Of a DNA stretch of 64,000 bases, positions 7,432 through 44,513 are shown one piece after another; positions within the stretch are counted from its first letter, which is position 1; each line of letters opens with the position of its first letter. Below the pieces are notes generated by a model that saw only the letters and a program-made list of their open reading frames with translations, made no database searches and had not been told where the DNA came from. The position numbers were made by a program, and so were the translations under genes. The DNA is taken from NCBI GenBank assembly GCA_000004695.1, contig CM000155.2:320001-384000 (forward strand). The letters run 5' to 3'. Source of the stretch: Dictyostelium discoideum. Taxonomy: Eukaryota.

Positions 7432-7464
<33 letters not shown>

Positions 7465-22599: not shown

Positions 22600-23712
22600 A
22601 AAAAAACCAATAATCTAAAATGAATCCATAAAAAGAAATATAAATTTTATTTTATTTATAATTATATTCTCAACGATTTAAATCATTTAATTATTTTATT
22701 ACTTTCGTTTAGGCGCTTTTTTTCCCTGCAGTCAGGAAAAAATAATTTAAAATTTCCCTACAACAGAAATTACAATTTTAAATGGAGACCAACTAACCCG
22801 TACTGAAATTTATTATGAATTACCAATAAAATCAAGTTGTTCAATTGTTTCGAACCAAATGATTAAATGTCTTGGTAATTTTATAAATTATTTAGATTTA
22901 TTTAAAAATGGTAAAATTAAAATACAATTTTCAATATGATTATAATTGATAATATCATAAACCAGTGGAGTTGAAAACAAGAGATTGGTTTACAAATTTA
23001 ATCGATGGAGTTATATCAATTTTAAAATCTGGAGAAGTTACATCACAAACAATTAGATATATATAACTTGAACTGGCTTCATTGAGAATGAAAATGGATC
23101 ACTCATAAAAATAATTGGATTGTGATGAATTATTAATTAATGGTGAAAATTTTAATGAAAATACAATTTACAATACATCTGTATATTGCTTTTCAAAAAA
23201 ACAAGTTTATAATTGTTCATTTATAAACTATACATCTATCTCATGTGATATTGAATTGGTAGGTCCATTCGATCAACTTTGTAAAATCAAATTTAATGGG
23301 TAAAGATGAGAATTATAATATTTCAATATCATATTATCCTCCATTAGTTTTAAATTCAACAAAGATTTCGAATTCATCGATTAGTGGAATTATTACAATT
23401 TTTGGTAATGAATTTTATAATCAAATTGATTTAATTACAGTTGGTAAAAGTAAATGTTTAAACTCTACATTTATAAATTCAACATCGATTTCATGTTTTG
23501 TAGAACCTTCAAATTTTATTATTAATCAAACTGAACAACAACAACAACAATATGTTAACATTACAATTAATAGCAAAAGTGGTGGTAATAATTTAATAAT
23601 TTATTCTGGTAATTCAAATAGAATTGATGAAAATAATAAATCAAATAAAAATACAATTGATGATAAACAAACCAACAATGAAATCAAAAATGAATCCATA
23701 AAAGAAATATAA
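22600..23712 (+). pseudogene. decayed edge copy of the tgr-like array: orphan 3' tail (22600..22690), junction, then a C-terminal gene fragment (22741..23712) with internal inversion and frameshifts
   Basis: 22619..22690 matches the last ~70 nt of the array genes ([20 protein letters not shown]). A GC-rich junction ggcgctttttttccctgcagtcagg follows. 22790 onward matches [18 protein letters not shown]... Then 22960..23120 is the reverse complement of the neighbouring coding block (it matches the antisense [15 protein letters not shown] ORFs of the other copies). The distal end reads in frame only with an extra g at aatggGtaaagatg and a 1-nt loss before the tail. There is no upstream signal exon. 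Confidence 0.7.
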
Positions 23713-24608
23713 ATTTAATTTTATTTATAATTATATTCTCAACGATTTTAATCATTTAATTAAATTTATTACTTTCGTTATAAAAAAAATTAAACTCACA
23801 CCAAAAACAATGATTTAGTATATATAAAAATGATTATTTTTAGTGGTTTTGTGTCAAATAAAAAAAAATAATAATACAATAATAAATTTTGAACATGTTG
23901 TTTTTTTTTTTTAATTTTTTTTTTTTTAATTATTTTTATAATAATTATTTTTTTGTTTTTACTATTTGATAAGTGTGTTATTGTGAATTTTGATAATTAA
24001 AATAATATATAAAAATCAAAAATAATTAAAAATATTACCACTTCTCATAAACTACTTTTTATGGTAGTGGTTGAAAAAAAAAAAAAATAATAATAATTTT
24101 AATTTCAATTAAAAAAAACAAGCCCAAAAAAGTTTAATACAATAAATAGTATTCTAATATGATGAAAGAAACATCAAGTGGTGGGTGGTAAACTTGGCAC
24201 ACAGTGTTAAAAAAAAACAATATGAGTAATATTGAAAATCATACAACAAAACTGATAATATTAAAAGAAATTAGTGGGATGTGTGTGTTGAAAAACATTT
24301 TTCAATAAATTATGTGATTGTTTATTTTTAATTTAATATTGAAGCATTACCTTATTGTTTTTATTATTATTTTTATTATTATTATTTTTTTTTTTTTTTT
24401 TTTTTATTATCAATATTTTTGTTTTTTTTAATTATTATTAATATTTATGTTTTTTTTTAATTATTAATATTTTTGTTTTTAAAAAATTTTTATAATTATT
24501 ATTTTTATTTTTAAATAATTTTTTTTCCAACCCAAACCCGTAATATTAAATTTTTTTCCCTTTTCAAAAAAACAATTTCATTATTAAAATAATAAATAGT
24601 AAATCAAA

Positions 24609-24768
24609 ATGAAATTTTTTATATTATTTTTTATTTTATATTTAGTTTCTGATACATTAGGACATTTAAATGAACCAGTTGTCAAGAGTAAATATTTAAT
24701 ATAAAAATAATTTAATCTTTTTTTTTATATTGTTTTTTCCGGTTTGGGTTTTTTTTTTTTTCCAAATT

Positions 24769-24833
<65 letters not shown>

Positions 24834-24955
24834 TTTGGTTATTGTTATTTACTATTTTTAATTTTTTTTAATGTGTTAATATTTAACTAGTTAAAAAAAT
24901 ACAAATATTCAATTTTGTAACCACTTGTCAATATAATTAAAGAAATTTGCAATTG

Positions 24956-25018
<63 letters not shown>

Positions 25019-27624
25019 AGTTTAAAATTAATATCTATAAATATTAATATTAATAAATATTAATCATTTAATAGATACATTCTCTATATTTTTGTATTTT
25101 TTTAAAAAGAAATCGATGGTTTCCAACACTAATTTTTTCTAATGATTTTATTTTAATTTCAGATTTTACATACACAAAACAATCATTGGAATATACATAT
25201 GATATTGATAGTACATATTATATAAAATGGATTTTTTCAAATTTGGAATATGAATTGGTTTTTGAATGTAAAAATAATAGCAAAGAAAGAACATGTACTG
25301 CTGGTATGTCCATTGATATTGCTAAAAATTTACATGGTCAAATAAAGGTATGCATACGTGGAATTGATAATAATGGTGTATTAGATTGCCATATTGCTTT
25401 TTATGAAGAATATTTTCCAAAGCCAATTATTGAAGGTGACTTTAAACCATCTACCAAAGGTGGTCCTACTATTATGAAAGGTTATTATTTGGCAATTGGT
25501 GCATACTACTATACCATTATCCCTGATACTAGATTGGGTATAATAGGTGATATTTTTAGTAACTCTATTGATGTCACAAATTTAATACTAGACTATAAAG
25601 GTGGTTGTGGCCCAGGAACTATTCAATGGTCAAATGATTTTAAATATAGTTTCAATCATTCAAATCCAATCATTGAAAATATTTTTATTGAAGGTTCATC
25701 TTTTATATCAAAAGGTTCTAATTTTTGTAATTCTTCTGATTCAATTCAAATTTATTTAGATGGTGTTCAAATTGATAAATCAAAAATAAAATCAATTGAT
25801 CATGAGCAATTTGAAATAATTTACACTCAACTATATTCAAAATCAATCAATGTTAAAATAGTATCTGGTGGACTTGAATCGAATATTTACAAATTGGATT
25901 TTAAACCGATACCTTTAAAAATTAATAGTGTTCCAAGATTAAAAGGTGGTTCAGTTACAATAATTGGTGAAAGACTATCTCCACAAGTATATAATTCAAC
26001 AATCATTGTTAAAATTGGTCAATATGATTGTAAAAATGTAATCTCATCAAAAAATGAAATTCTCTGTAATTTAGAATCGGTTCAAAATGTTGAAAAGGTT
26101 AAATTGGTAGATTTACAAGTTAATATCTCAATAAATGGTATTTTTAATGAAAATAATTTATTATTCTCATTCGATGTACCAATAATGTCAGATTTTATAC
26201 TTCCTCAAGGTGAAGTTAAATTAGTTGGTGATTGTTTTGGTTCTTCACAATTGACTCAAGTTAAAATTGACGATGTGTTACAATCCAATATAACAATTAA
26301 TATTAATGAAAAAGAAACAACACTTTCATTTAAGCCAATTAAACCAATTAAAAAATCAAAGTTATATATAATTGTCAATGGTACAAAATCAAATACTATT
26401 GAAATTGATTCATCATTTTTTGTAAAAAGTGTTCCATCTTCACCTTCAGTAAATGGTCAAATTGTAAACTTTACACTTTTCAATATAAATCCAAATAATG
26501 TAAATGCAACACCAATTATGATTTTTCAAAATAATAGTTCAATAAATGCAATTGATTATAAAAATTCAAATGAATACTCAACTCACACATACTCCTTTGA
26601 TATTCCAAAAAGTTGTGGGAGAAATGAGATTACAATTTTAATTGGAGACCAACTAACCCGTACTGAAATTTATTATGAATTACCAATAATATCAAGTTGT
26701 TCAATTGTTCCAAATCAAATGATTAAATGTCTTGGTAATTTTTTAAATTATCTAGATTTATTTAAAAATGGTAAAATTAAAATACAATTTTCAAATATGG
26801 TAATAATTGATAATATTCCAAACAATTCAATTATTTTTATGAGTGATTCATTTTCATTCCCAATGAAGCCAGAGTATAGTTCAAGTGATATATATCTTAT
26901 TGTTTGTGATGAAACTTCTCCATATTTTAAAGTTGATATAACTCCATCGCTTAAATTTGTGAGCCAATCTCTTGTTTTCAACTCCACTGGTGGTGAATTA
27001 TTAATTAATGGTGAAAATTTTAATGAAAATACAATTTACAATACATCTGTATATTGCTTTTCAAATAAACAAGTTTATAATTGTTCATTTATAAACAATA
27101 CATCTATCTCATGTGATATTGAATTGGTAGGTCCATTCGATCAACTTTGTAAAATCAAATTTAATGGTAAAGATGAGAATTATAACATTTCAATATCATA
27201 TTATCCTCCATTAGTTTTAAATTCAACAACGATTTCGAATTCATCGATTGGTGGAATTATTATAATTTTTGGTAATGAATTTTATAATCAAATTGATTCA
27301 ATTACAGTTGGTAAAAGTAAATGTTTAAACTCTACATTTATAAATTCAACATCGATTTCATGTTTTGTAGAACCTTCAAATTTTATTATTAATCAAACTG
27401 AACAACAACAACAATATGTTAACATTACAATTAATAACAAAAGTGGTGGTAATAATTTAATAATTTATTCTGTTAATTCAAATAGAATTGATGAAAATAA
27501 TAAATCAAATAAAAATACAATTGATGATAAACAAACCAACAATGAAATCAAAAATGAATCCATAAAAAGAAATATAAATTTAATTTTATTTATAATTATA
27601 TTCTCAACGATTTTAATCATTTAA
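24609..27624 (+). CDS. tgr-like IPT/TIG-repeat surface protein, array copy 1 (GPI-type tail); join(24609..24687,25163..27624), about 846 aa
   Basis: Exon 1 is [26 protein letters not shown] plus 1 nt, with donor A|GTAAAT. The 475-nt intron contains a 66-nt poly-T and ends ttttaatttcAG. Exon 2 (phase 1) runs ...[20 protein letters not shown]... through repeated IPT-like units ([12 protein letters not shown]...[19 protein letters not shown]; [53 protein letters not shown]; [44 protein letters not shown]). It ends in the hydrophobic tail [16 protein letters not shown] then TAA. Confidence 0.6.
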
Positions 27625-27868
27625 TTAAATTTATTACTTTCGTTATAAAAAAAAATTATACTCCCACCAAAAACAATGATTGAGTATATATAAAAAATGA
27701 TTATTTTTAGTGGTTTTGTGTTAAATAAAAAAAAAAAAATACAATAATAAATTTTGAACATGTTGTTTTTTTTTTTTTATATTTTTTTTTTTTTCTAATT
27801 ATTTTTAAAATAATTTTATTTTTTTTTTTTATTGGTTTTACTGTTTGGGTTATTTTTAATCTCAAATT

Positions 27869-27922
<54 letters not shown>

Positions 27923-28444
27923 TTTGATTATTGTTGTTATTTACTATTTTTAATTTTTTAATATTAAAGTCTCCAAATATTCAGCTATTGTTTATTTTTT
28001 ATATCATTGTTAATGTCATTAATAACTATAACTAGTTATTAATATAAATAAATATCAATCATTTTGTAGATATATTATCTATTTATGTATTTTATAAAAG
28101 ATATTGATAATTTCCAACACCAATTTTTAATTTTTTTATTTGGTTCATTAATATTTTTTTAAAAATTTTTCAATGTTTTAACCAGTTGTCAATGTAATTA
28201 AAGATATTTGCAATTGTTTATTAAAAAAAAAAAAAAAAATTGTTTGTTATTTTTTTAAAAAAAAAAAAAAAAGAGCTACTGTTCATTTTTTAATAAATTA
28301 ATTTTAAATTAATATCTATAACTATTAATATTAATAAATATTAATCATTTATTAGATACATTATCTCTATTTTTTGTATTTTTTTTAAAAAGAAATCAAT
28401 AGTTTCAACACTAATTTTTTCTTATGATTTTATTTTAATTTTAG

Positions 28445-31400
28445 ATTTTACATGCACAAAACAATCATTGGAATATACATATGATATTGATAGTACATAT
28501 TATATAAAATGGATTTTTTCAAATTTGAAATATGAATTGGTTTTTGAATGTAAAAATAATAGCAAAGAAAGAACATGTACTGCTGGTATGTCCATAGATA
28601 TTGCTAAAAATTTACATGGTCAAATAAAGATGTGCGGAACTGATAATAATGGTGTATTAGATTGCCATATGCGTGTATACGAAGAATATTTTCCAAAGCC
28701 AATTATTGAAGGTGACTTTAAACCATCTACCAAAGGTGGTCCTACTATTATGAAAGGTTATTATTTGGCAGTTGGAGTAATTCCTTACTTTACTATTATC
28801 CCTGGTACTATATTGGGAACAATAGGTGATATTTTTAGTAACTCTATAGATGTCACAAATTTAATACTAGACTATAAAGGTGTTGTGGCCCAAGAACTAT
28901 TCAATGGCCAAATGATTTTAAATATAGTTTCAATCATTCAAATCCAATCATTGAAAATATTTTTATTGAAGGTTCATCTTTTATATCAAAAGGTTCTAAT
29001 TTTTGTAATTCTTCTGATTCAATTCAAATTTATTTAGATGGTGTTCAAATTGATAAATCAAAAATAAAATCAATTGATCATGAGCAATTTGAAATAATTT
29101 ACACTCAACTATATTCAAAATCAATCAATGTTAAAATAGTATCTGGTGGACTTGAATCGAATATTTACAAATTGGATTTTAAACCTATACCTTTAAAAAT
29201 TAATAGTGTTCCAAGATTTAAAGGTGGTTCAATTACAATAATTGGTGAAAGACTATCTTCACAAGTAAATAATTCAACAATCATTGTTAAAATTGGTCAA
29301 TATCATTGTAAAAATGTAATCTCATCAAAAAATGAAATTCTCTGTAATTTAGAATCGGTTCCAAATGTTGAAAAGGTTAAATTGGTAGATTTGCAAGTTA
29401 ATATCTCAATAATGGTATTTTTAATGAAAATAATTTATTATTCTCATTCGATGTACCAATAATATCAGATTTTATACTTCCTCAAGGTGAAGTTAAATTA
29501 GTTGGTGATTGTTTTGGTTCTTCACAATTGACTCAAGTTAAAATTGACGATGTGTTACAATCCAATATAACAATTAATATTAATGAAAAAGAAACAACAC
29601 TTTCATTTAAGCCAATTAAACCAATTAAAAAGTCAAAGTTATATATAATTGTCAATGGTACAAAATCAAATACTATTGAAATTGATTCATCATTTTTTGT
29701 AAAAAGTGTTCCATCTTCACCTTCAGTAAATGGTCAAATAGTAAACTTTACACTTTTCAATATAAATCCAAATAATGTAAATGCAACACCAATTATGATT
29801 TTTCAAGATAATAGTTCAATAAAAGCAATTGATTATAAAAATTCGAATGAATACTCGACTCACACATACTCTTTTGATATTCCAAAAAGTTGTGGGAGAA
29901 ATGAAATTACAATTTTAATTGGAGACCAACTAACCCGTACTGAAATTTATTATGAATTACCAATAATATCAAGTTGTTCAATTGTTTCAAATCAAATGAT
30001 TAAATGTCTTGGTAATTTTACAAATTATTTAGATTTATTTAAAAATGGTAAAATTAAAATACAATTTTCAAATATGATAATAATTGATAATATTCCAAAC
30101 AATCCAATTATTTTTATGAGTGATTCATTTTCATTCCCAATAAAGCCAGAGTATAGTTCAAGTGATATATATCTTATTGTTTGTGATGAAACTTCTCTAG
30201 ATTTTAAAGTTGATATAACTCCATCGCTTAAATTTGTGAGCCAATCTCTTGTTTTCAACTCCACTGGTGGTGAATTATTAATTAATGGTGAAAATTTTAA
30301 TGAAAATACAATTTACAATACATCTGTATATTGCTTTTCAAATAAACAAGTTTATAATTGTTCATTTATAAACAGTACATCTATCTCATGTGATATTGAA
30401 TTGGTAGGTCCATTCGATCAACTTTGTAAAATCAAATTTAATGGAAAAGATGAGAAGTATAACATTTCAATATCATATTATCCTCCATTAGTTTTAAATT
30501 CAACAACGATTTCGAATTCATCAATTGGTGGAATTATTACAATTTTAATTGGAGACCAACTAACCCGTACTGAAATTTATTATGAATTACCAATAATATC
30601 AAGTTGTTCAATTGTTTCAAATCAAATGATTAAATGTCTTGGTAATTTTACAAATTATTTAGATTTATTTAAAAATGGTAAAATTAAAATACAATTTTCA
30701 AATATGGTAATAATTGATAATATTCCAAACAATCCAATTATTTTTATGAGTGATTCATTTTCATTCCCAATGAAACCAGAGTATAGTTCAAGTGATATAT
30801 ATCTTATTGTTTGTGATGAAACTTCTCCATATTTTAAAGTTGATATAACTCCATCGCTTAAATTTGTGAGCCAATCTCTTGTTTTCAACTCCACTGGTGG
30901 TGAATTATTAATTAATGGTGAAAATTTTAATGAAAATACAATTTACAATACATCTGTATATTGCTTTTCAAATAAACAAGTTTATAATTGTTCATTTATA
31001 AACAATACATCTATCTCATGTGATATTGAATTGGTAGGTCCATTCGATCAACTTTGTAAAATCAAATTTAATGGTAAAGATGAGAAGTATAACATTTCAA
31101 TATCATATTATCCTCCATTAGTTTTAAATTCAACAACGATTTCAAATTCATCAATTGGTGGAATTATTACAATTTTTGGTAATGAATTTTATAATCAAAT
31201 TGATTCAATTACAGTTGGTAAAAGTAAATGTTTAAACTCTACATTTATAAATTCAACATCGATTTCATGTTTTGTAGAACCTTCAAATTTTATTATTAAT
31301 CAAACTGAACAACAACAACAATATGTTAACATTAAAATTAATAGCAAAAGTGGTGGTAATAATTTAATAATTTATTCTGGTAATTCAAATAGAATTGATG

Positions 31401-31531
31401 AAAATAATAAATCAAATAAAAATACAATTGATGATAAACAAACCAACAATGAAATCAAAAATGAATCCATAAAAAGAAATATAAATTTAATTTTATTTAT
31501 AATTATATTCTCAACGATTTTAATCATTTAA
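28445..31531 (+). pseudogene. tgr-like array copy 2: lacks the signal exon, has two frameshifts and a 627-bp in-frame internal tandem duplication
   Basis: The coding region is split over ORFs 28468..29037, 29172..29462 and 29528..31531. A g is missing at ~28891 (ggtgttgtggcc versus ggtggttgtggcc in other copies). An a is missing at ~29410 (ctcaataatggt versus ctcaataaatggt). Segment ~29918..30544 ([14 protein letters not shown]...SIGGIITI) is repeated at ~30545..31180, and the copies differ at about 1% of sites. The upstream ATG exon seen in other units is absent: 27790-27840 joins the preceding 3' flank directly to the intron tail ttttactgtttgggtt. Confidence 0.75.
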
Positions 31532-32151
31532 TTTAATTTATTATTTTCGTTATAAAAAAAAAATTAAACTCCTACCAAAAAAAATTATTGAGTATATATA
31601 AAAAATGATTATTTTTAGTGGTTTTGTGTTAAATAAAAAAAAAAAATAATACAATAATAAATTTTGAACATGTTGTTTTTTTTTTTTATAATTTTTTTTT
31701 TTTTTAATTATTTTTAAAATAATTATTTTTTTGTTTTTACTATTTGATAAGTGTGTTATTGTGAATTTGATAATTAAAATAATATATAAAATCAAAAATA
31801 ATTAAAAATATAACCACTTCTCATAAACTACTTTTTATGGTAGTGGGTGAAAAAAAAAAAAATAATAATTTTCATTTCAATTAAAAAAACAAGCCCAAAA
31901 AAGTTTAATACAATTAATAATATTCTAATATGATGAAAGAAACATCAAGTGGTGGGTGTGGTAAACTTGGCACACAGTGTTAAAAAAAAACAATATGAGT
32001 AATATTGAAAATCATACAACAAAACTGATAATATTAAAATAAATTAGTGGGATGTGTGTGTTGAAAAACATTATTTAATAAATTATGTGATTGTTTATTT
32101 TTAATTTAATATTGAAGCATTACCTTATTGTTTTTATTATTATTTTATTAT

Positions 32152-32196
<45 letters not shown>

Positions 32197-32395
32197 TATC
32201 AATATTTTTTTTTTTTTTAATTATTATTAATATTTATGTTTTTTTTTTAATTATTAATATTTTTGTTTTTATATATTATTTTAATTTTTATTTTTTTTTA
32301 TTTTTTTTATTTCAAATCATTAACAGTAATAATAAATTATTTAACATCCTCAAAAAAACAATTTCATAATTAAAATAATAAATAGTAAATCAAAA

Positions 32396-32559
32396 ATGAA
32401 ATTTATTATATTATTTTTTATTTTATATTTAGTTTCTGATACATTAGGATCTTTAAATGAACCAGTTGTCAAGAGTAAATATTTTAAATATAAATATAAT
32501 TTAATTTTTTTTTTTTATTGTTTTTATTGTTTGGGTTATTTTTATTTCTCAAATTTAAT

Positions 32560-32621
<62 letters not shown>

Positions 32622-35592
32622 TTTGAATTATATTTGTTATTTACTATTTTTAATTTTTTAATATTAAAGTCTCCAAATATTCAGCTATTGTTTATTTTTT
32701 ATATCATTGTTAATGTCATTAATAACTATAACTAGTTATTAATATAAATAAAAATCAATCATTTTGTAGATATATTATCTATTTATGTATTTTATAAGAT
32801 ATTGATAATTTCCAACACTAATTTTTAATTTTTTGTTTGGTTCATTATTATTTTTTTAAAAATTGTTCAATGTTTTAACCACTTTTCAATGTAATTAAAG
32901 ATATTTGCAATTGTTTATTAAAAAAAAAAAAAAAAATTGTTTGTTATTTTATTAAAAAAAAAAGAGCTACTGTTCATTTTTTAATAAATTAATTTTAAAT
33001 CAATATCTATAACAATTGATATTAATAAATAATAATCATTTAATAGATACATTATCTATATTTTTTGTAATTTTTTTAAAAAGAAATCAATAGTTTCCAA
33101 CACTAATTTTTTCTTATGATTTTATTTTAATTTCAGATTTTACATGCACAAAACAATCATTGGAATATACATATGATATTGATAGTACATATTATACAAA
33201 ATGGATTTTTTCAGATTTGGAATATGAATTGGTTTTTGAATGTAAAAATAATAGCAAAGAAAGAACATGTACTGCTGGTATGTCCATTGATATTGCTAAA
33301 AATTTACATGGTCAAATAAAGATGTGCGGAACTGATAATAATAGTGTATTAGATTGCCATTCGAATTACGAAGAATATTATCCAAAGCCAATTATTGAAG
33401 GTGACTTTAAACCATCTACCAAAGGTGGTCCTACTATTATGAAAGGTTATTATTTGGCAGTTGGTGCATACTACTATAACATTATCCCTTATACTAGATT
33501 GGGTATTATAGGTGATGTTCATAGTAACTCTATAGATGTCACAAATTTAATACTAGACTATAAAGGTGGTTGTGGCCCAAGAACTATTCAATGGCCAAAT
33601 GATTTTAAATATAGTTTCAATCATTCAAATCCAATCATTGAAAATATTTTTATTGAAGGTTCATCTTTTATATCAAAAGGTTCTAATTTTTGTAATTCTT
33701 CTGATTCAATTCAAATTTATTTAGATGGTGTTCAAATTGATAAATCAAAAATAAAATCAATTGATCATGAGCAGTTTGAAATAATTTACACTCAACTATA
33801 TTCAAAATCAATCAATGTTAAAATAGTATCTGGTGGACTTGAATCGAATATTTACAAATTGGATTTTAAACCTATACCTTTAAAAATTAATAGTGTTCCA
33901 AGATTAAAAGGTGGTTCAATTACAATAATTGGTGAAAGACTATCTTCACAAGTAAATAATTCAACAATCATTGTTAAAATTGGTCAATATGATTGTAAAA
34001 ATGTAATCTCATCAAAAAATGAAATTCTCTGTAATTTAGAATCGGTTCCAAATGTTGAAAAAGTTAAATTGGTAGATTTACAAGTTAATATCTCAATAAA
34101 TGGTATTTTTAATGAAAATAATTTATTATTCTCATTCGATATACCAATAATATCAGATTTTATACTTCCACAAGGTGAAGTTAAATTAGTTGGTGATTGT
34201 TTTGGTTCTTCACAATTGACTCAAGTTAAAATTGACGATGTATTACAATCCAATATAACAATTAATATTAATGAAAAAGAAACAACACTTTCATTTAAGC
34301 CAATTAAACCAATTAAAAAATCAAAGTTATATATAATTGTCAATGGTACAAAATCAAATACTATTGAAATTGATTCATCATTTTTTGTAAAAAGTGTTCC
34401 ATCTTCACCTTCAGTAAATGGTCAAATTGTAAACTTTACTCTTTTCAATATAAATCCAAATAATGTTAATGCAACACCAATTATGATTTTTCAAGATAAT
34501 AGTTCAATAAAAGCAATTGATTATAAAAATTCAAATGAATACTCAACTCACACATACTCTTTTGATATTCCAAAAAGTTGTGGGAGAAATGAAATTACAA
34601 TTTTAATTGGAGACCAACTAACCCGTACTGAAATTTATTATGAATTACCAATAATATCAAGTTGTTCAATTGTTTCAAATCAAATGATTAAATGTCTTGG
34701 TAATTTTTTAAATTATTTAGATTTATTTAAAAATGGTAAAATTAAAATACAATTTTCAAATATGGTAATAATTGATAATATTCCAAACAATCCAATTATT
34801 TTTATGAGTGATTCATTTTCATTCCCAATGAAGCCAGAGTATAGTTCAAGTGATATATATCTTATTGTTTGTGATGAAACTTCTCTAGATTTTAAAGTTG
34901 ATATAACTCCATCGCTTAAATTTGTGAGCCAATCTCTTGTTTTCAACTCCACTGGTGGTGAATTATTAATTAATGGTGAAAACTTAAATGAAAATACAAT
35001 TTACAATACATCTGTATATTGCTTTTCAAATAAACAAGTTTATAATTGTTCATTTATAAACAATACATCTATATCATGTGATATTGAATTGTTAGGTCCA
35101 TTCGATCAACTTTGTAAAATCAAATTTAATAGTAAAGATGAGAATAATAACATTTCAATATCATATTATCCTCCATTAGTTTTAAATTCAACAACGATTT
35201 CAAAATCATCAACTGGTGGAATTATTACTATTTTTGGTAATGAATTTTATAATCAAATTGATTCAATTACAGTTGGTAAAAGTAAATGTTTAAACTCTAC
35301 ATTTATAAATTCAACATCGATTTCATGTTTTGTAGAACCTTCAAATTTTAATATTAACCAAACTGAACAACAAAAAAAACAATATGTTAACATTATAATT
35401 AATGGTAAAAGTGGTGGTAATAATTTAATAATTTATTCTGGTAATTCAAATAGAATTGATGAAAATAACAAATCAAATAAAAATACAATTGACGAAAAAC
35501 AAACCAATAATGAAATCAAAAATGAATCTATTAAAAGAAATATAAATTTTATATTATTTATAATTATATTCTCAACAATTTTAATCATATAA
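32396..35592 (+). CDS. tgr-like IPT/TIG-repeat surface protein, array copy 3 (GPI-type tail); join(32396..32474,33137..35592)
   Basis: Same architecture as copy 1: exon 1 [26 protein letters not shown] plus 1 nt, donor GTAAAT, a 662-nt intron with a ~75-nt poly-T, acceptor tttcAG at 33135-33136, and the 810-aa ORF 33160..35592 in phase. Confidence 0.6.
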
Positions 35593-36397
35593 TTTAATTT
35601 ATTAATTTCATTGTAAAAAAAAAAAAAAATAAAACTCCAACCAAAAACAATTATTGGGTATATATAAAAAATGATTATTTTTGGTGGGTTAAAAATAAAA
35701 TATAATACAATAATAAATTTTGAACTTATTTTTTTTTTTTTATTTTTTGATAATTTTTTTTTTTTTAATTATTTTTAAAATAATTATTTTTTTGTTTTTA
35801 CTATTTGATAAGTGTGATTGTGAATATTAATAATTTAAATAAAATATAAAATTAAAAATGATTAAAAATATAACCACTTATCATAAAATACTTTTTTTGG
35901 CAGTGGTTGAAAAAAAAAAAAAAAATAATAATATTCATTTCAATTAAAAAAAACACATCCAAAAAAGTTTAATAAAAAATAAATAGTATTCTAAAATGAT
36001 GAAAGAAACACCAATTGGTGGGTGTGGTAAACTTGACACAGTGTTTAATAAACATGATGAGTAATATTGAAAATCATACAACAAAACTGATAAAAATAAA
36101 TTAGTGTGGGAGTGTGTGTTGAAAAACATTTTTCAATAAATTATTTGATTGTTTTTTTTTAATTTACTATTGAAGCATCGTTACCTTAATTTTATTATTA
36201 TTATTATTATTATTTTTTTTTTTCTTTAATATTTTTTTTAATTATTATTATAATTTTTATTTTTTTTAATTATTAATATTTTTGTTTTTATATTTTTTTA
36301 ATTATTAATATTTTTTATTTTTTTATTTCAAATCATAAATTATTTAACATCCTCAAAAAAACAATTTTAATATTAAAATAATAATAGTAAATCAACA

Positions 36398-39105
36398 ATG
36401 AAAATTATTATATTTTTTTTTATTTTATATTTATTTTCCGATACATAAGGATCTTTAGTTGTCAAGAGTAAATATATAAATTAAAATAATTTTAATTTTT
36501 TTTAGTTTTCATTATATCTATATGTACAAAATATATATGTGTCTTAGATAATCATTGAATAGATACATTATTTATATTTTGTATTTTTTTAAAAAGAAAT
36601 CAATGGTTTCCAACTCTAATTTTTTCTAATATTTACATTTTAATTTCAGATTTTACATGCACAAAACAATCATTGGAATATACATATGATATCGATAGTA
36701 CATATTATACAAAATGGATTTTTTCAGATTTGGAATATGAATTGGTTTTTGAATGTAAAAATAATAGCAAAGAAAGAACATGTACTGCTGGTATGTCCAT
36801 TGATATTGCTAAAATTTTACATGGTCAAATAAAGAAGTGCGGAACTGATAATAATAGTGTATTAGATTGCCATTTGAAATACGAAGAATATTATCCAAAG
36901 CCAATTATTGAAGGTGACTTTAAACCATCTACCAAAGGTGGTCCTACTATTATGAAAGGTTATTATTTGGCAGTTGGTGCATACTACTATAACATTATCC
37001 CTTATACTAGATTGGGTATTATAGGTGATGTTCATTGTAACTCTATAGATGTCACAAATTTAATACTAGACTATAAAGGTGGTTGTGGCCCAAGAACTAT
37101 TCAATGGCCAAATGATTTTAAATATAGTTTCAATCATTCAAATCCAATCATTGAAAATATTTTTATTGAAGGTTCATCTTTTATATCAAAAGGTTCTAAT
37201 TTTTGTAATTCTTCTGATTCAATTCAAATTTATTTAGATGGTGTTCAAATTGATAAATCAAAAATAAAATCAATTGATCATGAGCAGTTTGAAATAATTT
37301 ACACTCAACTATATTCAAAATCAATCAATGTTAAAATAGTATCTGGTGGACTTGAATCGAATATTTACAAATTGGATTTTAAACCTATACCTTTAAAAAT
37401 TAATAGTGTTCCAAGATTAAAAGGTGGTTCAATTACAATAATTGGTGAAAGACTATCTTCACAAGTAAATAATTCAACAATCATTGTTAAAATTGGTCAA
37501 TATCATTGTAAAAAGGTAATCTCATCAAAAAATGAAATTCTATGTAATTTAGAATCGGTTCCAAATGTTGAAAAAGTTAAATTGGTAGATTTACAAGTTA
37601 ATATCTCAATAAATGGTATTTTTAATGAAAATAATTTATTATTCTCATTCGATATACCAATAATATCAGATTTTATACTTCCACAAGGTGAAGTTAAATT
37701 AGTTGGTGATTGTTTTGGTTCTTCACAATTAACTCAAGTTAAAATTGACGATGTGTTACAATCTAATATAACAATTAATATTAATGAAAAAGAAACAACA
37801 CTTTCATTTAAGCCAATTAAACCAATTAAAAAATCAAAGTTATATATAATTGTCAATGGTACAAAATCAAATACTATTGAAATTGATTCATCATTTTTTG
37901 TAAAAAGTGTTCCATCTTCACCTTCAGTAAATGGTCAAATTGTAAACTTTACTCTTTTCAATATAAATCCAAATAATGTTAATGAAACACCAATTATGAT
38001 TTTTCAAGATAATAGTTCAATAAATGCAATTGATTATAAAAATTCAAATGAAAACTCGACTCACACATACTCTTTTGATATTCCAAAAAGTTGTGGGAGA
38101 AATGAAATTACAATTTTAATTGGAGACCAACTAACCCGTACTGAAATTTATTATGAATTACCAATAATATCAAGTTGTTCAATTGTTTCAAATCAAATGA
38201 TTAAATGTCTTGGTAATTTTTTAAATTATCTAGATTTATTTAAAAATGGTAAAATTAAAATACAATTTTCAAATATGGTAATAATTGATAATATTCCAAA
38301 CAATCCAAATATTTTTATGAGTGATTCATTTTCATTCCCAATGAAGCCAGAGTATAGTTCAAGTGATATATATCTTATTGTTTGTGATGAAACTTCTCCA
38401 GATTTTAAAGTTGATATAACTCCATCGCTTAAATTTGTGAGCCAATCTCTTGTTTTCAACTCCACTGGTGGTGAATTATTAATTAATGGTGAAAATTTTA
38501 ATGAAAATACAATTTACAATACATCTGTATATTGCTTTTCAAATAAACAAGTTTATAATTGTTCATTTATAAACAATACATCTATCTCATGTGATATTGA
38601 ATTGGTAGGTCCATTCGATCAACTTTGTAAAATCAAATTTAATGGTAAAGATGAGAATTATAACATTTCAATATCATATTATCCTCCATTAGTTTTAAAT
38701 TCAACAACGATTTCGAATTCATCGATTGGTGGAATTATTATAATTTTTGGTAATGAATTTTATAATCAAATTGATTCAATTACAGTTGGTAAAAGTAAAT
38801 GTTTAAACTCTACATTTATAAATTCAACATCGATTTCATGTTTTGTAGAACCTTCAAATTTTATTATTAATCAAACTGAACAACAACAACAACAATATGT
38901 TAACATTACAATTAATAACAAAAGTGGTGGTAATAATTTAATAATTTATTCTGGTAATTCAAATAGAATTGATGAAAATAATAAATCAAATAAAAATACA
39001 ATTGATGATAAACAAACCAACAATGAAATCAAAAATGAATCCATAAAAAGAAATATAAATTTAATTTTATTTATAATTATATTCTCAACGATTTTAATCA
39101 TTTAA
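36398..39105 (+). CDS. tgr-like array copy 4: exon 2 (36650..39105) is intact but the signal-peptide exon at 36398 carries an in-frame TAA and a 9-nt deletion; possibly a pseudogene
   Basis: Exon 2 (810-aa ORF 36673..39105) is full length. The homologous exon 1 reads atgaaaattattatattttttttt..ttttccgatacaTAAggatctttagttgtcaagag, against ..gatacaTTAggatctttaaatgaaccagttgtcaagag in copies 3 and 5. The intron is reduced to ~170 nt, compared with ~660 nt in the other units. Confidence 0.5.
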
Positions 39106-39943
39106 TTAAATTTATTACTTTCGTTATAAAAAAAATTATACTCCCACCAAAAACAATGATTGAATATATATAAAAAATGATTATTTTTAGTGGTTTTGTG
39201 TTAAATAAAAAAAAAAAAAATACAATAATAAATTTTGAACATGTTGTTTTTTTTTTTTTATATTTTTTTTTTTTTCTAATTATTTTTATAATAATTATTT
39301 TTTTGTTTTTGCTATTTGATAAGTGTGTTATTGTGAATTTTGATAATTAAAATAATATATAAAATCAAAAATAATTAAAAATATAACCACTTCTCATAAA
39401 CTACTTTTTATGGTAGTGGGTGAAAAAAAAAAAAATAATAATTTTCATTTCAATTAAAAAAAACAAGCCTAAAAAATTTTAATACAATTAATAGTTTTCT
39501 AATATGATGAAAGAAACATCAAGTGGTGGGTGTGGTAAACTTGGCACACAGTGTTAAAAAAAAACAATATGAGTAATTTTGAAAATCATACAACAAAACT
39601 GATAATATTAAAATAAATTAGTGGGATGTGTGTGTTGAAAAACATTATTTAATAAATTATGTGATTTGTTTATTTTAATTTAATATTGAAGCATTACCTT
39701 ATTGTTTTTATTATTATTTTTTTTTTTTTTTTTTTTTTTTTTTATTATTATCAATATTTTTTTTTTTTAATTATTATTAATATTTATGTTTTTTTAATTA
39801 TTAATATTTTTGTTTTTATATATTATTTTAATTATTATTTTTTTATTATTTTTTTTATTTCAAATCATTTACAGTAATAATAAATTATTTAACATCCTCA
39901 AAAAAACAATTTCATTATTAAAATAATAAATAGTAAACCAAAA

Positions 39944-40105
39944 ATGAAATATATTATATTATTTTTTATTTTATATTTAGTTTCTGATACATTAGGATCT
40001 TTAAATGAACCAGTTGTCAAGAGTAAATATTTTAAATATAAAAATAATTTTATTTTTTTTTTTTTATTGTTTTTACTGTTTGGGTTATTTTTATATCTCA
40101 AATTT

Positions 40106-40151
<46 letters not shown>

Positions 40152-43100
40152 TTTGATTATTGTTGTTATTTACTATTTTTAATTTTTTAATATTAAAGTC
40201 TCCAAATATTCAGCTATTGTTTATTTTTTTATATCATTGTTAATGTCATTAATAACTATAACTAGTTATTAATATAAATAAATATCAATCATTTTGTAGA
40301 TATATTATCTATTTATGTATTTTATAAAAGATATTGATAATTTCCAACACCAATTTTTAATTTTTTTATTTGGTTCATTAATATTTTTTTAAAAAATTTT
40401 CAATGTTTTAACCACTTGTCAATGTAATTAAAGATATTTGCAATTGTTTATTAAAAAAAAAAAAAAAAAAAAAATTGTTTGTTATTTTTTTAAAAAAAAA
40501 AAAAAAGAGCTACTGTTCATTTTTTAATAAATTAATTTTAAATTAATATCTATAACTATTAATATTAATAAATATTAATCATTTATTAGATACATTATCT
40601 CTATTTTTTGTATTTTTTTAAAAAGAAATCAATGGTTTCCAACACTAATTTTTTCTTATGATTTTATTTTAATTTTAGATTTTACATGCACAAAACAATC
40701 ATTGGAATATACATATGATATTGATAGTACATATTATTCAAAATGGATTTTTTCAAATTTGAAATATGAATTGGTTTTTGAATGTAAAAATAATAGCAAA
40801 GAAAGAACATGTACTGCTGGTATGTCCATTGATATTGCTAAAAATTTACATGGTCAAATAAAGATGTGCAGAACTGATAATAATGGTGTATTAGATTGCC
40901 ATTCGAATTACGAAGAATATTTTCCAAAGCCAATTATTGAAGGTGACTTTAAACCATCTACCAAAGGTGGTCCTACTATTATGAAAGGTTATTATTTGGC
41001 AGTTGGAGTAATTCCTTACTTTACTATTATCCCTGATACTATATTGGGAACAATAGGTGATATTTTTAGTAACTCTATAGATGTCACAAATTTAATACTA
41101 GACTATAAAGGTGGTTGTGGCCCAAGAACTATTCAATGGCCAAATGATTTTAAATATAGTTTCAATCATTCAAATCCAATCATTGAAAATATTTTGATAG
41201 AAGGTTCATCTTTTATATCAAAAGGTTCTAATTTTTGTAATTCTTCTGATTCAATTCAAATTTATTTAGATGGTGTTCAAATTGATAAATCAAAAATAAA
41301 ATCAATTGATCATGAACAATTTGAAATAATTTACACTCAACTATATTCAAAATCAATAAATGTTAAAATAGTATCTGGTGGACTTGAATCGAATATTTAC
41401 AAATTGGATCTTAAACCTATACCTTTAAAAATTAATAGTGTTCCAAGATTAAAAGGTGGTTCAATTACAATAATTGGTGAAAGACTATCTTCACAAGTAA
41501 ATAATTCAACAATCATTGTTAAAATTGGTCAATATGATTGTAAAAATGTAATCTCATCAAAAAATGAAATTCTCTGTAATTTAGAATCGGTTCCAAATGT
41601 TGAAAAGGTTAAATTGGTAGATTTACAAGTTAATATCTCAATAAATGGTATTTTTAATGAAAATAATTTATTATTCTCATTCGATATACCAATAATATCA
41701 GATTTTATACTTCCTCAAGGTGAAGTTAAATTAGTTGGTGATTGTTTTGGTTCTTCACAATTGACTCAAGTTAAAATTGACGATGTGTTACAATCCAATA
41801 TAACAATTAATATTAATGAAAAAGAAACAACACTTTCATTTAAGCCAATTAAACCAATTAAAAAATCAAAGTTATATGTAATTGTCAATGGTACAAAATC
41901 AAATACTATTGAAATTGATTCATCATTTTTTGTAAAAAGTGTTCCATCTTCACCTTCAGTAAATGGTCAAATTGTAAACTTTACACTTTTCAATATAAAT
42001 CCAAATAATGTTAATGCAACACCAATTATGATTTTTCAAGATAATAGTTCAATAAAAGCAATTGATTATAAAAATTCAAATGAATACTCAACTCACACAT
42101 ACTCTTTTGATATTCCAAAAAGTTGTGGGAGAAATGAAATTACAATTTTAATTGGAGACCAACTAACCCGTACTGAAATTTATTATGAATTACCAATAAT
42201 ATCAAGTTGTTCAATTGTTTCAAATCAAATGATTAAATGTCTTGGTAATTTTATAAATTATCTAGATTTATTTAAAAATGGTAAAATTAAAATACAATTT
42301 TCAAATATGGTAATAATTGATAATGTTCCAAACAATCCAATTATTTTTATGAGTGATTCATTTTCATTCCCAATGAAGCCAGAGTATAGTTCAAGTGATA
42401 TATATCTTATTGTTTGTAATGAAATTTCTCCAGATTTTAAAGTTGATATAACTCCATCGCTTAAATTTGTGAGCCAATCTCTTGTTTTCAACTCCACTGG
42501 TGGTGAATTATTAATTAATGGTGAAAATTTTAATGAAAATACAATTTACAATACATCTGTATATTGCTTTTCAAATAAACAAGTTTATAATTGTTCATTT
42601 ATAAACTATACATCTATCTCATGTGATATTGAATTGGTAGGTCCATTCGATCAACTTTGTAAAATCAAATTTAATGGAAAAGATGAGGAGTATAACATTT
42701 CAATATCATATTATCCTCCATTAGTTTTAAATTCAACAACGATTTCGAATTCATCAATTGGTGGAATTATTACAATTTTTGGTAATGAATTTTATAATCA
42801 AATTGATTCAATTACAGTTGGTAAAAGTAAATGTTTAAACTCTACATTTATTAACTCAACATCAGTTTCATGTTTTTTAGAACCTTCCAAAATTATTATT
42901 GATCAAAGCAAACAACAACAGCAACAACAACAACAACAACAACAATATGTTAACATCACGATTAATGGTAAAAGTGGTGGTAATAATTTAATTATTTATT
43001 TTGATAATTCAATTATTGAAGTTAAAAACCAATCAAGCCAAAGTGATAAAAACAACAACAACAACAACAACAACAATGGTAAAAATATAAATAATGGTGA

Positions 43101-43863
43101 TAGTAAAACTGATGGTAGAAGTTTTTATGAAAAAAATAAAAAATGGATAACAGTATTAATAATAATTGGAAGTTTGGCATTACTTTTATTTATCTTTTTT
43201 GGTATAATTTATTGTAATAGAAAAAACGGTACTGTTATCTATTGGAAATATATTATGTGTCGCGGAATCAAAGAAAAAAAATATAAATTTAAAAATAGAA
43301 AAGAGATAAAACAAATACAAGAATTAAGACATACATTGGATAATGCAGAGACAATTTTTGCTGACTTTGAATTAGATAATATAATAACTTATTCAGAGTA
43401 TCAACTTACACCCGAAAATCGTCTACGAAAAGAACAACAAGAATTAGCTCGAGAAAATTATATTGAAACTTACCCAGATTATTATTTACATATAAATAAA
43501 ACTAAAAATTTACCAAATAATGATTCATTACCTCCAAATCAAGTTGAAAATTTACCAAATAATAATTCATTACCTCCAAATAAAATTGAAAATTCATTAC
43601 CTCCGAATCAAACTGAAAATTTACCAAATAATAATTCATTACCTCCAAATCAAACTGAAACATTACAAGAAGATTCTTTACCTCCAAATCAAACTGAAAC
43701 ATTACCAGAAGTTTCATTACCTCCAAATCATATTGAAACATTACCAGAAGTTTCATTACCTCCAAATCAAATTGAAACATTACCAGAAGTTTCATTACCT
43801 CCAAATCATATTGAAAAACTAACAGACAATTCATCATCATCTCAAGACCCAAGCTCTTCATAA
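39944..43863 (+). CDS. tgr-like IPT/TIG-repeat protein, array copy 5, with a transmembrane helix and a repetitive cytoplasmic tail; join(39944..40022,40679..43863)
   Basis: Exon 1 is [26 protein letters not shown] plus 1 nt, the intron is 656 nt, and the 1053-aa ORF begins at 40702. It is identical in layout to the other copies up to ~42850, then diverges: Q12 tract, N-rich linker, TM helix [23 protein letters not shown], basic stretch [17 protein letters not shown], and 8 tandem 11-12-aa units SLPPNQ(T/I)E(N/T)LP(N/E)(N/V). Confidence 0.65.
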
Positions 43864-44299
43864 TTTTTTAAAAAATAAATAAATAAATAAATAAATAAAG
43901 AAATAAAGAAATAAATAAATAAATAAATTTCTTTTAAAAATAATATTAAAAAATGGAAAATTGTATTGAAAAAAAAGAAAACTATCAATTTAAAAGATAT
44001 TCCTGTTTTAAATTTTTATTTTTTTTTTTTTTTTTTTATTCTTATAAAATTTATATTTCTATTGATTAAAATCTTCCCTTACCACCTTGTTCCATACCAT
44101 TCATGTTATACATTCATACCACCTTTGATTCATAGCATGATATCATTCATACAATTTTGATTGAAACCACCCATACCTTGATTGATCATAATTCCTCCAT
44201 TGAAACGTTAATTCATCATTTGTTGTGGTCTCATTGTTGGAATGGTTGAACCTGCTGAAGTAATTGGATGTGCTGGTAGTTGTATGAATGTGTGTATGT

Positions 44300-44335: not shown

Positions 44336-44420
44336 CAAAATTTCAAAATAGTAAAAAATAATAATTACTGTTTTATAATTTAAATAATTATTACATGTAT
44401 TATTATTTGTCGTTTGTTGA

Positions 44421-44462
<42 letters not shown>

Positions 44463-44469
44463 GGAATTT

Positions 44470-44513
<44 letters not shown>

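Follow-up and report, generated by a model that had tools for sequence, protein, structure and literature searches.

For self/non-self recognition in organisms that become multicellular by aggregation, the tgr (Tiger) family is the model system, and the mechanism by which it diversifies is being actively studied. Roles in discrimination are known only for tgrB1 and tgrC1, and the functional pair is defined by its divergent arrangement, a common promoter and its position at the tgrBC locus (PMC12745789). This pair on chromosome 3 has a demonstrated ligand-receptor function, and its loci show instability in the form of duplications, recombination and incomplete copies that might serve as sequence donors. 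The tgrAHIO clade has duplicated prolifically, with arrays gained and lost, and many of its genes show low expression and have no known function (PMC12745789). Here, we analyzed a 64,000-nucleotide stretch of chromosome 6 of Dictyostelium discoideum AX4 (hereafter referred to as the window), which contains a tandem tgr gene cluster that has been annotated already. The genes come from the same organism as the tgrA/H/I/O clade, are the same annotated genes (PMC12745789; PMC3188802), and are placed with that clade as a whole. Like its members, they start with a signal peptide, contain IPT/TIG as well as TgrO1-like Ig domains and carry a membrane anchor at the C-terminus, and they include many recent duplicates, partial copies and pseudogenes whose positions vary between isolates. 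Two tail types within one array, concerted evolution and a five- versus eight-copy difference go beyond the main text of PMC12745789. The locus also shares its family and its instability with tgrB1/tgrC1, but its genes run head to tail, with separate promoter blocks, on another chromosome.

On the plus strand, positions 22612-43863 of the window hold an edge fragment followed by five head-to-tail units of 3.3-4.7 kb, which are 91-98% identical. The array comprises three intact genes (units 1, 3 and 5), two pseudogenes (unit 2 and, probably, unit 4) and one truncated fragment (Table 1). A preliminary description of this DNA had proposed a head-to-tail array of IPT/TIG tgr-like genes, and comparison of the window with itself indeed revealed a direct repeat spanning 23122 to 43012. 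In this self-comparison, the start-to-start spacings were 3868, 3277 (plus a 630-bp internal duplication), 4058, 3513 and 4032 bp, and HSPs between units extended over 2.2-5 kb at 91.5-97.8% identity, well above chance. The five units differ mutually by 1.7-3.4% and carry unit-specific indels. The limits given in that description also hold, since diverged pieces of a further copy reach left to 22612 (start given as 22600) and the last gene stops at 43863 (end given as 43900). Units 1, 3 and 5 share a 79-nt exon 1, an intron of 475, 662 and 656 bp, respectively, with a long poly-T in each, and an exon 2 of 2.46-3.19 kb. A transposon was also considered as the cause of the array and rejected, as the window contains no transposase ORF within the array or next to it.

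Two-exon models of units 1, 3 and 5 yielded products of 846, 844 and 1087 aa, each with 100% identity to an annotated protein (XP_635221/Q54EL9, XP_635224 and XP_635226/Q54EL4, respectively); the sources name the array proteins 'immunoglobulin E-set domain-containing protein'. The TIG homology that the preliminary description had suggested was confirmed with Pfam, in which all full copies (units 1, 3, 4 and 5) matched both PF01833 (TIG; 42-46 bits versus a cut-off of 20.9) and PF24612 (TgrO1-like Ig; 108-115 bits versus a cut-off of 27.9). The AlphaFold (AF2) model of the unit 3 protein (pLDDT 81.4) is an all-beta, multi-domain rod, for which Foldseek retrieved, among others, MET and the IPT ectodomains of plexins. 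In the intact proteins, the signal peptide precedes a rod of ~8-9 beta-sandwich domains of the Ig-like/IPT kind; a disordered stalk rich in Asn and a membrane anchor follow. The signal peptide, predicted from hydropathy only, comprises hydrophobic residues 3-18 from exon 1 of units 1, 3 and 5; it is absent from unit 2, in which exon 1 is deleted, and from unit 4, which has a stop in exon 1.

The intact genes differ in their anchors. The proteins of units 1 and 3 end with a 14-residue hydrophobic segment at the extreme C-terminus, with no cytoplasmic part after it. Their 23-residue terminal sequence fits the layout of a GPI signal, in which a small-residue omega site and a polar spacer precede a terminal hydrophobic stretch, and is conserved in wild isolates; the tail looks like either a GPI-attachment signal or a minimal anchor. 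In the terminal hydrophobic segment, the absence of cytoplasmic residues and the polar stalk, units 1 and 3 are like the GPI-anchored contact site A (gp80), but they have no sequence relationship with it, and their GPI-like anchor is putative. In unit 5, whose strong identity to the other units stops at 43012, a full TM helix occupies residues 849-872, and behind it lies a cytoplasmic tail of ~215 aa that includes a proline-rich repeat. We infer that the array proteins are located at the cell surface.

The two remaining units are damaged in different ways. In unit 2, ~750 bp are missing, among them exon 1 and the G-rich block upstream of it; the unit further carries two 1-bp deletions (frameshifts) and an internal 630-bp duplication (29906-30546 and 30536-31176). 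In unit 4, exon 1 is 70 nt long with a 9-bp deletion and an in-frame TAA at codon 17, and the intron measures only ~180 bp; we regard this unit as a probable pseudogene. Its exon 2 retains an 810-codon frame that is open throughout although exon 1 is dead, so open frames can outlast function. The AX2 gene model of unit 4 begins within the promoter block, and its product lacks a signal peptide. The preliminary description had assigned the same layout to every unit, which is exact for units 1, 3 and 5 and does not extend to units 2 and 4. In the edge fragment, the piece at 23122-23712 shows 96% identity to the 3' end of unit 1, and its ORF (138 aa, 23296-23712) has a 1-bp frameshift ahead of the hydrophobic tail; positions 22766-22955 show 91% identity to wild-strain copies versus ~64% (ungapped) to the AX4 units.

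Table 1. Positions of the array units, their upstream blocks and neighbouring features in the window
Feature	Position	Strand	Details
Lineage-restricted surface-type protein ORF	6534..9683	-	1049 codons; hydrophobic C-terminus
Array-type tgr relic	12998..13066	+	69 bp; residues 667-689, 74-78% identical
Diverged tgr paralogue	13292..16043	-	Exon 1 ATG at 16043; 837-codon exon 2 ORF 13292-15805
Left array flank	~21 kb		Kinase gene
Edge fragment	22612..23712	+	Truncated 3' part of a further tgr copy; pieces 22612-22705, 22766-23068, 23122-23712
Unit 1 upstream block	24180..24288	+	Two clusters of GBF-type G-box motifs (KGKGKGK)
Unit 1, intact short-tail gene	24609..27624	+	Exon 1 24609-24687, intron 24688-25162, exon 2 25163-27624
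Unit 2, pseudogene	28445..31531	+	Exon 2 alone; promoter block and exon 1 deleted
Unit 3 upstream G-box block	31951..32061	+	Motif scan
Unit 3, intact short-tail gene	32396..35592	+	Exon 1 32396-32474, intron 32475-33136, exon 2 33137-35592
Unit 4 upstream G-box block	36017..36119	+	Motif scan
Unit 4, probable pseudogene	36398..39105	+	Degenerate exon 1 at 36398; exon 2 36650-39105
Unit 5 upstream G-box block	39525..39635	+	317-419 bp 5' of ATG
Unit 5, intact long-tail gene	39944..43863	+	Exon 1 39944-40022, intron 40023-40678, exon 2 40679-43863
39-bp repeat, 6.3 copies	43588..43834	+	13-aa proline-rich motif starting with E/K; unit 5 cytoplasmic tail
Right array flank	~44.6 kb		533-aa gene

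We further focused on the sequences upstream of the genes. Paired (T/G)G(T/G)G(T/G)G(T/G) promoter elements are the motif of GBF-dependent post-aggregative genes, and lagC is GBF-dependent (PMC2257962). Units 1, 3, 4 and 5 each possess two G-box clusters, which are separated by ~100 bp and precede the ATG by 320-420 bp. Inside the array, G-box matches are confined to these upstream blocks, apart from one isolated match (35683-35689) in the intergenic region between units 3 and 4, and the whole window contains 62 KGKGKGK matches versus 26 +/- 5 expected. The upstream block with its paired motifs is conserved across strains and related loci that are ~10% diverged. The array genes would thus be expressed after aggregation through these conserved, putative GBF-type G-boxes. 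In a developmental proteome, TgrB1, C1, D1 and M1 were detected and the array proteins are not mentioned.

Two minus-strand IPT/TIG genes had also been described upstream of the array. The gene at 13292-16043 is tgr-like, as supported by a Pfam match and an exon 1 ATG; it shows ~26% identity to the array proteins and has an orthologue at the syntenic locus of the sister species. The short relic next to it (Table 1) occupies the site of the sister species' single copy. The second gene, which had been given as 6534-9866, fared less well: its ORF has no Pfam match even at E<=1 and no tblastn match to tgr proteins, and alignment with a 12-sequence tgr profile (hhalign) returned a probability of 3% and an E of 0.013. 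What stands is one weak TIG-like segment at residues ~340-460 (exhaustive phmmer, E 7e-8 to 3e-4), and the gene may at best be a very remote IPT relative. The sole tRNA gene of the window is located at 3423-3495.

We then compared the window with a second, independent assembly (GCA_054883475.1; Nanopore+Illumina), which, from its sequence identity and a published strain list, appears to represent AX2-214, a strain of the same laboratory lineage. This assembly contains eight units, which in window terms are ordered 1, 2, 3, hybrid, 2, 3, 4 and 5. All five window units recur in it, and within the repeat units not one substitution separates the two assemblies. The extra 11.4 kb is likewise free of substitutions and is joined by a unit-4/unit-1 hybrid (A4) that is unit-4-like to exon 2 position 1115 and unit-1-like from 1304, with one switch and thus an exchange interval of 189 bp. 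Judged from its sequence, an eight-unit version with such an in-register hybrid is the signature of unequal crossing-over.

Near-identical repeats of 3-4 kb are difficult to assemble, and a contig from a wild isolate (L005) ends within an array of such repeats. It might therefore be argued that the array or its extra units are an assembly artefact, in which the reads of one gene were duplicated or the eight-unit version was mis-joined; the lack of substitutions over the extra 11.4 kb, and differences between AX4 and the second assembly near unit 1 exon 1 that are clustered and resemble base-call errors, would point the same way. We consider this explanation extremely improbable. Because the five units are 1.7-3.4% apart and have their own indels, they are not copies of one read set, and because every unit recurs in an independent assembly with its repeat sequence free of substitutions, duplication during assembly does not account for the array, a concern that the preliminary description had raised. 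The hybrid, moreover, is a single clean, recombination-like switch in register, and a mis-join is less likely given the ~3% divergence on either side of it. An error in the opposite direction deserves more attention, namely that AX4 really has eight units and that a perfect higher-order repeat of 11.4 kb was collapsed in its 2005 Sanger reference. The path from unit 3 through unit 4 to unit 5 is sequence-identical to that from unit 6 through unit 7 to unit 8, and the hybrid unit is made only of sequence found in units 4 and 1; therefore, a collapse would yield exactly the window sequence. AX4 and AX2 also have a recent laboratory ancestor in common. However, real duplications do distinguish laboratory stocks of this lineage (PMC2643946), and we hold a collapse to be possible but somewhat doubtful. 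The locus is mentioned neither in this array-CGH study of laboratory stocks (PMC2643946) nor in a mutation-accumulation study (PMC9849192). Five versus eight units could arise if AX2 gained copies, if AX4 lost them or if the AX4 reference is collapsed; the earlier warning that tandem arrays of this kind are commonly collapsed in assemblies may apply to that reference itself.

Recombination among the copies was also evident within the window, in which 338 of 820 informative-site pairs failed the four-gamete test (PHI-like p 0.004). Unit 4 differs from unit 3 at 6 of 488 sites at the 5' end and 12 of 369 sites at the 3' end, and from unit 1 at 28 of 488 and 0 of 369 sites, respectively. In a neighbour-joining tree, copies from AX4, wild isolates and D. 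firmibasis group by array and not by tail type, and because mosaic copies cluster by array rather than by tail type, we conclude that they evolve in concert. The preliminary description had portrayed a locus that is duplicating, converting and pseudogenising paralogues, and each part of this portrait found support in the eight versus five units with their hybrid, the mosaics, and the two pseudogenes and fragment.

Taken as a whole, the locus is very probably a tgr paralogue cluster reshaped by unequal crossing-over and gene conversion. Because the units are 94-98% identical, they would misalign and recombine; unequal crossing-over would alter the number of units (five versus eight), and gene conversion would move tracts of sequence from copy to copy. 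Promoter, intron and the initial 2.3 kb of exon 2 would thereby evolve in concert; the 3' ends that encode the tails would stay distinct. Copies without exon 1 would decay to pseudogenes yet might remain donors for conversion. The array is similar to known tandem arrays under concerted evolution in its head-to-tail repeats, its copy-number change with a hybrid junction, its mosaics and a similarity within the array that exceeds that between orthologues of different genomes. In contrast to other such arrays, homogenisation here halts ~0.15 kb before the part that encodes the membrane anchor, so that two classes of protein isoform persist in the array.

The coding sequence of the array is constrained, as dN/dS is 0.31-0.45 over codons 170-776. 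Overall dN/dS is 0.43-0.55, indicating relaxed constraint, and reaches ~1 in the N-terminal 170 codons, where counts are small. Positive selection was considered and rejected, since no dN/dS >1 is supported and values of ~1 are confined to this N-terminal part with its few counts.

Other isolates and species place the array in a wider context. In a D. cf. discoideum isolate, the syntenic locus (L007) carries a single long-tail gene instead of an array. Several wild isolates, at ~10% nucleotide divergence, have kept the short-tail form and its specific C-terminus, and short genes are again placed upstream of a long gene at a second D. discoideum locus and in D. firmibasis. Of the wild-isolate arrays retrieved (L003, L005 and L006), none is syntenic with the window, and L006 is syntenic with another locus, that of XP_635270, which lies ~100 kb away. 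Both copy number and sequence turn over fast between isolates. A DDE_Tnp_4 fragment was seen only beside a wild-isolate array. Exact look-ups of the flank proteins found the second assembly alone, and a protein search with the right-flank 533-aa ORF returned only low-complexity CWF21-like matches and no Dictyostelium protein.

We infer a role of the array genes in developmental cell-cell adhesion or recognition. The preliminary description had gone further and linked them to kin recognition; membership of the same tgr family stands (Pfam), whereas such a role is shown only for tgrB1/tgrC1 (PMC12745789). That the array genes are kin-recognition determinants working like this pair would agree with their common protein family and domain type, with a membrane-distal N-terminal region that is the most variable part of the protein (5-6% versus 1.5-2%) and with the rapid turnover among isolates. 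However, the two properties that define the functional pair, a divergent arrangement with a common promoter and a position at the tgrBC locus, are absent here; all units lie on the plus strand, each with its own upstream block (deleted in unit 2), and the window ORFs scanned against Pfam include no second tgrB/C-type gene. With discrimination roles known only for tgrB1/C1 and dN/dS >1 unsupported, we consider this explanation quite unlikely. The cluster might instead be functionless, a decaying by-product of local instability whose ORFs persist since the duplications are recent. Two of the five units are pseudogenes, to which the edge fragment is added, and the exon 2 of unit 4 has stayed open for 810 codons despite its dead exon 1; the relaxed overall dN/dS, the value of ~1 at the N-terminus and the low expression reported for the clade (PMC12745789) would be in keeping with decay. 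Against this, dN/dS remains at 0.31-0.45 over 600 codons, the short-tail form and its C-terminus are kept in several wild isolates at ~10% divergence, the promoter block is conserved, and the short-upstream-of-long arrangement recurs in D. firmibasis. Loss of function is therefore unlikely as an explanation for the cluster.

A more speculative reading, which we regard as improbable at present, is that each array preserves its short-tail, GPI-like genes and its long-tail gene, with the transmembrane helix and proline-rich tail, as a matched set. Conversion would homogenise their promoters and entire ectodomains and halt shortly before the anchor-coding part, yielding a homotypic recognition module in which specificity changes in lock-step and copy number (five or eight units) sets dosage. 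If so, 'ligand-like' anchored and 'receptor-like' signalling forms would always carry the same array-specific ectodomain.

The tgr family and its instability have been published already, and in this sense the locus adds little that is conceptually new. What is new is the eight-unit assembly with its hybrid, the mosaic copies and concerted evolution, and the single copy in the sister species. At this locus, unequal crossing-over can be followed cleanly at base resolution, with the exchange mapped to a 189-bp interval, in a clade of no known function. Anyone mapping reads, quantifying expression or designing knock-outs for these genes should take into account that the widely used AX4 reference and the second assembly disagree (five versus eight copies). 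Finally, two anchor types on a homogenised ectodomain offer a lead, open to testing, on what the non-B/C Tgr proteins do.

The preliminary description had proposed a head-to-tail tandem array of tgr-like (IPT/TIG) genes at 22600-43900 of the window, which has ~20% G+C by base composition and no N anywhere in its sequence. The repeat proved to be real: scanning the window for direct repeats and comparing it with itself by blastn placed it at 23122-43012, with start-to-start spacings of 3868, 3277, 630, 4058, 3513, and 4032 bp (the 630-bp step being an internal duplication) and 91.5-97.8% identity across HSPs of 2.2-5 kb. Pieces of one more copy, the edge fragment, have diverged further and lie at 22612-22705 and 22766-23068, and the proposed bounds are thus accurate. 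The exon 1, intron, and exon 2 structure was read from the sequence of unit 5, and the same elements were then located in the other units. The array genes are already annotated in the D. discoideum reference genome, and the tgr family is a well-known one.

Gene models and other features of the window, and related tgr arrays elsewhere
Feature	Sequence	Position	Strand	Remark
Unit 1, two exons	window	24609-24687 + 25163-27624	+	846 aa, identical to XP_635221
Unit 3, two exons	window	32396-32474 + 33137-35592	+	844 aa, identical to XP_635224
Unit 5, two exons	window	39944-40022 + 40679-43863	+	1087 aa, identical to XP_635226; 1053-codon ORF 100% identical to this D. discoideum AX4 protein (Q54EL4)
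tRNA-Glu(UUC)	window	3423-3495	+	
Cytochrome P450 fragment	window	3966-5126	-	
SAE2/CtIP C-terminal domain protein	window	56634-57962	-	
ANKRD13-type protein	window	59053-60189	+	
FNIP-repeat protein	window	60554-61585	+	
Kinase-gene fragment	L006 (wild isolate)	8646-9317		beside tgr array
Kinase-gene fragment	L003 (wild isolate)	22168-22306		beside tgr array
L004, tgr array	D. firmibasis CM069765.1	4240797-4263766		short-upstream-of-long arrangement
L006, tgr array	GCA_054859355.1			short-upstream-of-long arrangement

Every full copy carries a TgrO1-like Ig domain (PF24612, 108-115 bits) and an IPT/TIG domain (PF01833, 42-46 bits), the latter as anticipated when a Pfam search was proposed. 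In the AlphaFold model of unit 3 (mean pLDDT 81.4, from a 20-sequence alignment), Ig-like domains form an all-beta chain, after which come a disordered stalk (residues 795-832) and a C-terminal helix. Among the best Foldseek PDB matches to this model are the ectodomains of plexins A1 and A2 (IPT domains), as well as MET and FMG1B, a flagellar glycoprotein of Chlamydomonas. By hydropathy analysis, the products of the intact units 1, 3, and 5 all have a signal-like segment at residues 3-18. Units 1 and 3 end in a 14-residue hydrophobic stretch with nothing cytoplasmic beyond it, a layout that resembles a GPI-attachment signal. In unit 5, a TM helix of 24 residues precedes a ~215-aa tail, in which a 39-bp repeat (6.3 copies) codes for a 13-aa proline-rich motif. 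The drop in identity at 43012 is sharp, yet there is no clean breakpoint; 3' of this position, the short tail can still be loosely aligned to the stalk of the long form and the first part of its TM segment, so the short form is an old derivative that arose from the long one by truncation. The short C-terminus of units 1 and 3 was also found in several wild isolates.

Alignment of the five inter-exon regions did not uphold the uniform unit layout described previously, as the upstream block and exon 1 are both intact only in units 1, 3, and 5. Unit 2 has lost ~750 bp, including both of these elements, and its exon 2 contains a 630-bp internal duplication and two 1-bp deletions; judged by these lesions, it is a pseudogene. 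Unit 4 is a probable pseudogene: exon 2 is open over 810 codons, exon 1 has a 9-bp deletion and an in-frame TAA at codon 17, the intron has shrunk to ~180 bp, and the 856/857-aa models for this unit in a second assembly (GCA_054883475.1) begin within the promoter block, without a signal peptide. The edge fragment terminates in a 138-codon ORF, frameshifted ahead of the hydrophobic tail. One of its pieces (22766-22955) shows 91% identity to the matching part of wild-isolate copies, the five AX4 units being much less similar, and may preserve a sequence variant that homogenisation erased elsewhere in the array.

An exact-sequence look-up found the XP_635224 sequence twice on one contig of GCA_054883475.1. 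We infer that this assembly is AX2-214, because its proteins are identical to their AX4 counterparts and AX2-214 is the sole genome of PMC12745789 sharing the AX4 laboratory lineage. Its merged locus (34.6 kb) contains genes of 846, 963, 844, 856, 963, 844, 857, and 1087 aa, corresponding in window terms to units 1, 2, 3, X, 2, 3, 4, and 5. The extra unit X equals unit 4 at all informative sites through exon 2 position 1115 and unit 1 from position 1304 onward, as expected if units 4 and 1 had undergone a single unequal crossover in a stretch of 189 bp over which they are identical; such an event would have duplicated 11,414 bp.

The five- and eight-unit states are accounted for equally well by three histories: AX2 may have gained units, AX4 may have lost them, or the Sanger AX4 reference may be collapsed. 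Whichever of these holds, an artefactual duplication in the window, the concern raised at the outset, is excluded, since the second assembly has the same units and no substitution falls within them; the two differ in homopolymer lengths and at two substituted sites in the intergenic flank that follows unit 1. The earlier remark that such arrays are commonly collapsed may apply to the AX4 reference itself. Around unit 1 exon 1, differences between the AX4 reference and the second assembly form dense clusters at 24481-24563 and 24733-24839 (e.g., CCAACCCAAACCC in the reference vs TTTCAAATCATTAACA in the other units and the second assembly), outside which they are confined to homopolymer length, bar the two flank substitutions; these clusters look like low-quality reference base calls and not real divergence. 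A 4.8-Mb wild-isolate contig (L005; GCA_054859385.1 JBTAPF010000019.1, 1-12727) stops inside an array of the same subfamily, with its last gene cut off. Because even long-read assemblies break within these arrays, tgr array copy numbers in published genomes are lower bounds.

Exchange among copies was also evident from the five window copies, in which 338 of the 820 parsimony-informative site pairs failed the four-gamete test and the incompatibilities were clustered (PHI-like permutation, p = 0.004). At the 5' end of exon 2, unit 4 differs from unit 3 at 6/488 sites and from unit 1 at 28/488, whereas at the 3' end it differs from unit 1 at 0/369 and from unit 3 at 12/369. With mosaic copies, the unit-4/1 hybrid, and the lesions of units 2 and 4, the reading of this locus as duplicating, converting, and pseudogenising was correct. 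We built a neighbour-joining tree on the shared 2.3 kb of exon 2 from the window, the second AX4/AX2 locus (XP_635270), three wild-isolate arrays, the D. cf. discoideum orthologue, and the D. firmibasis array, and found that copies grouped by array, with 1.7-3.4% divergence among window units and ~10% between these and every other copy from the D. discoideum clade. In the window, L006, and D. firmibasis, the long-tail gene clustered with the short-tail genes belonging to the same array. In L004 and L006, one to several shorter tgr genes lie directly upstream of a full-length long-tail gene on the same strand, an arrangement seen again at non-syntenic loci in other isolates and another species.

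In an isolate of the sister species D. cf. discoideum (GCA_054859205.1), the syntenic region starts out collinear with window 2669-12222, continues with a single long-tail unit 5 orthologue and then an orthologue of the tgr gene on the minus strand (window 13307-16381), and resumes with the equivalent of 44376-50421; neither the array nor the kinase gene is present at this locus. An array-type gene has left a 69-bp relic at window 12998-13066, exactly at the position of the sister-species copy. Because the relic marks this site, the array would have arisen or expanded beyond the minus-strand gene after the two lineages split, with decay of the original copy, the relic being the one indicator of this polarity. 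The kinase gene, a protein-kinase/ankyrin gene at 18918-21906 (+) directly left of the array, has a Pkinase match (E 6e-23) truncated at profile position 190/263, at the ORF end. Fragments of it (86-94% identical) adjoin tgr arrays elsewhere in two wild isolates, as if its pieces travel with tgr units.

Nei-Gojobori dN/dS was 0.43-0.55 overall, 0.31-0.45 for codons 170-776, and 0.64-1.2 for the N-terminal 170 codons; with counts this small, we claim no positive selection. Nucleotide divergence is likewise greatest in the N-terminal region. Conservation of the G-rich upstream block extends to loci ~10% different in coding sequence. Within the array, the GBF-type motif (as defined in PMC2257962) occurs only in these blocks, bar a lone match at 35683-35689 between units 3 and 4; the whole window has 62 matches vs 26 ± 5 expected. 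Given the motif in conserved blocks and the GBF dependence of lagC (tgrC1) (PMC2257962), we reasonably infer that the array genes may be expressed post-aggregation.

Two further IPT/TIG genes had been proposed upstream. That at 13292-16043 (-) is indeed a tgr gene, albeit a diverged one, whereas the case for the 1049-codon ORF at 6534-9683 (-) is much weaker, with no Pfam match at E ≤ 1 and no tblastn similarity to tgr proteins. Alignment of this ORF to a tgr profile with hhalign gave a probability of 3%. Its close homologues are restricted to the second assembly and the sister species, its residues ~340-460 are TIG-like against unrelated TIG-rich proteins (exhaustive phmmer, E 7e-8 to 3e-4), and its C-terminus is hydrophobic, as in short-tail tgr proteins. 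The predicted product can best be regarded as a surface-type protein that is lineage-restricted and has one or more TIG-like domains, and may represent an unrecognised fast-evolving surface-protein lineage adjoining the tgr cluster. Directly right of the array, a 533-aa ORF (44638-46239, +) encodes a low-complexity protein with no Pfam match of its own, whose database relatives are only CWF21/SRm-type splicing-factor proteins (E 1e-19 to 1e-6).

The tgrB1/C1 allorecognition pair is a divergent gene pair with one common promoter at the tgrBC locus, whereas the array is neither a divergent promoter-sharing pair nor at that position. The tgrAHIO clade, whose functions are unknown, duplicates nearly as often as transposons, and complete and partial tgr gene arrays are gained and lost genome-wide (PMC12745789, 2025). 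The finding is real and its interpretation correct, but already known in kind. To this our analysis adds the status of each unit, a mapped crossover, and a copy-number discrepancy between assemblies, together with concerted evolution of the ectodomain while two anchor types are kept and a single-copy state in the sister species.
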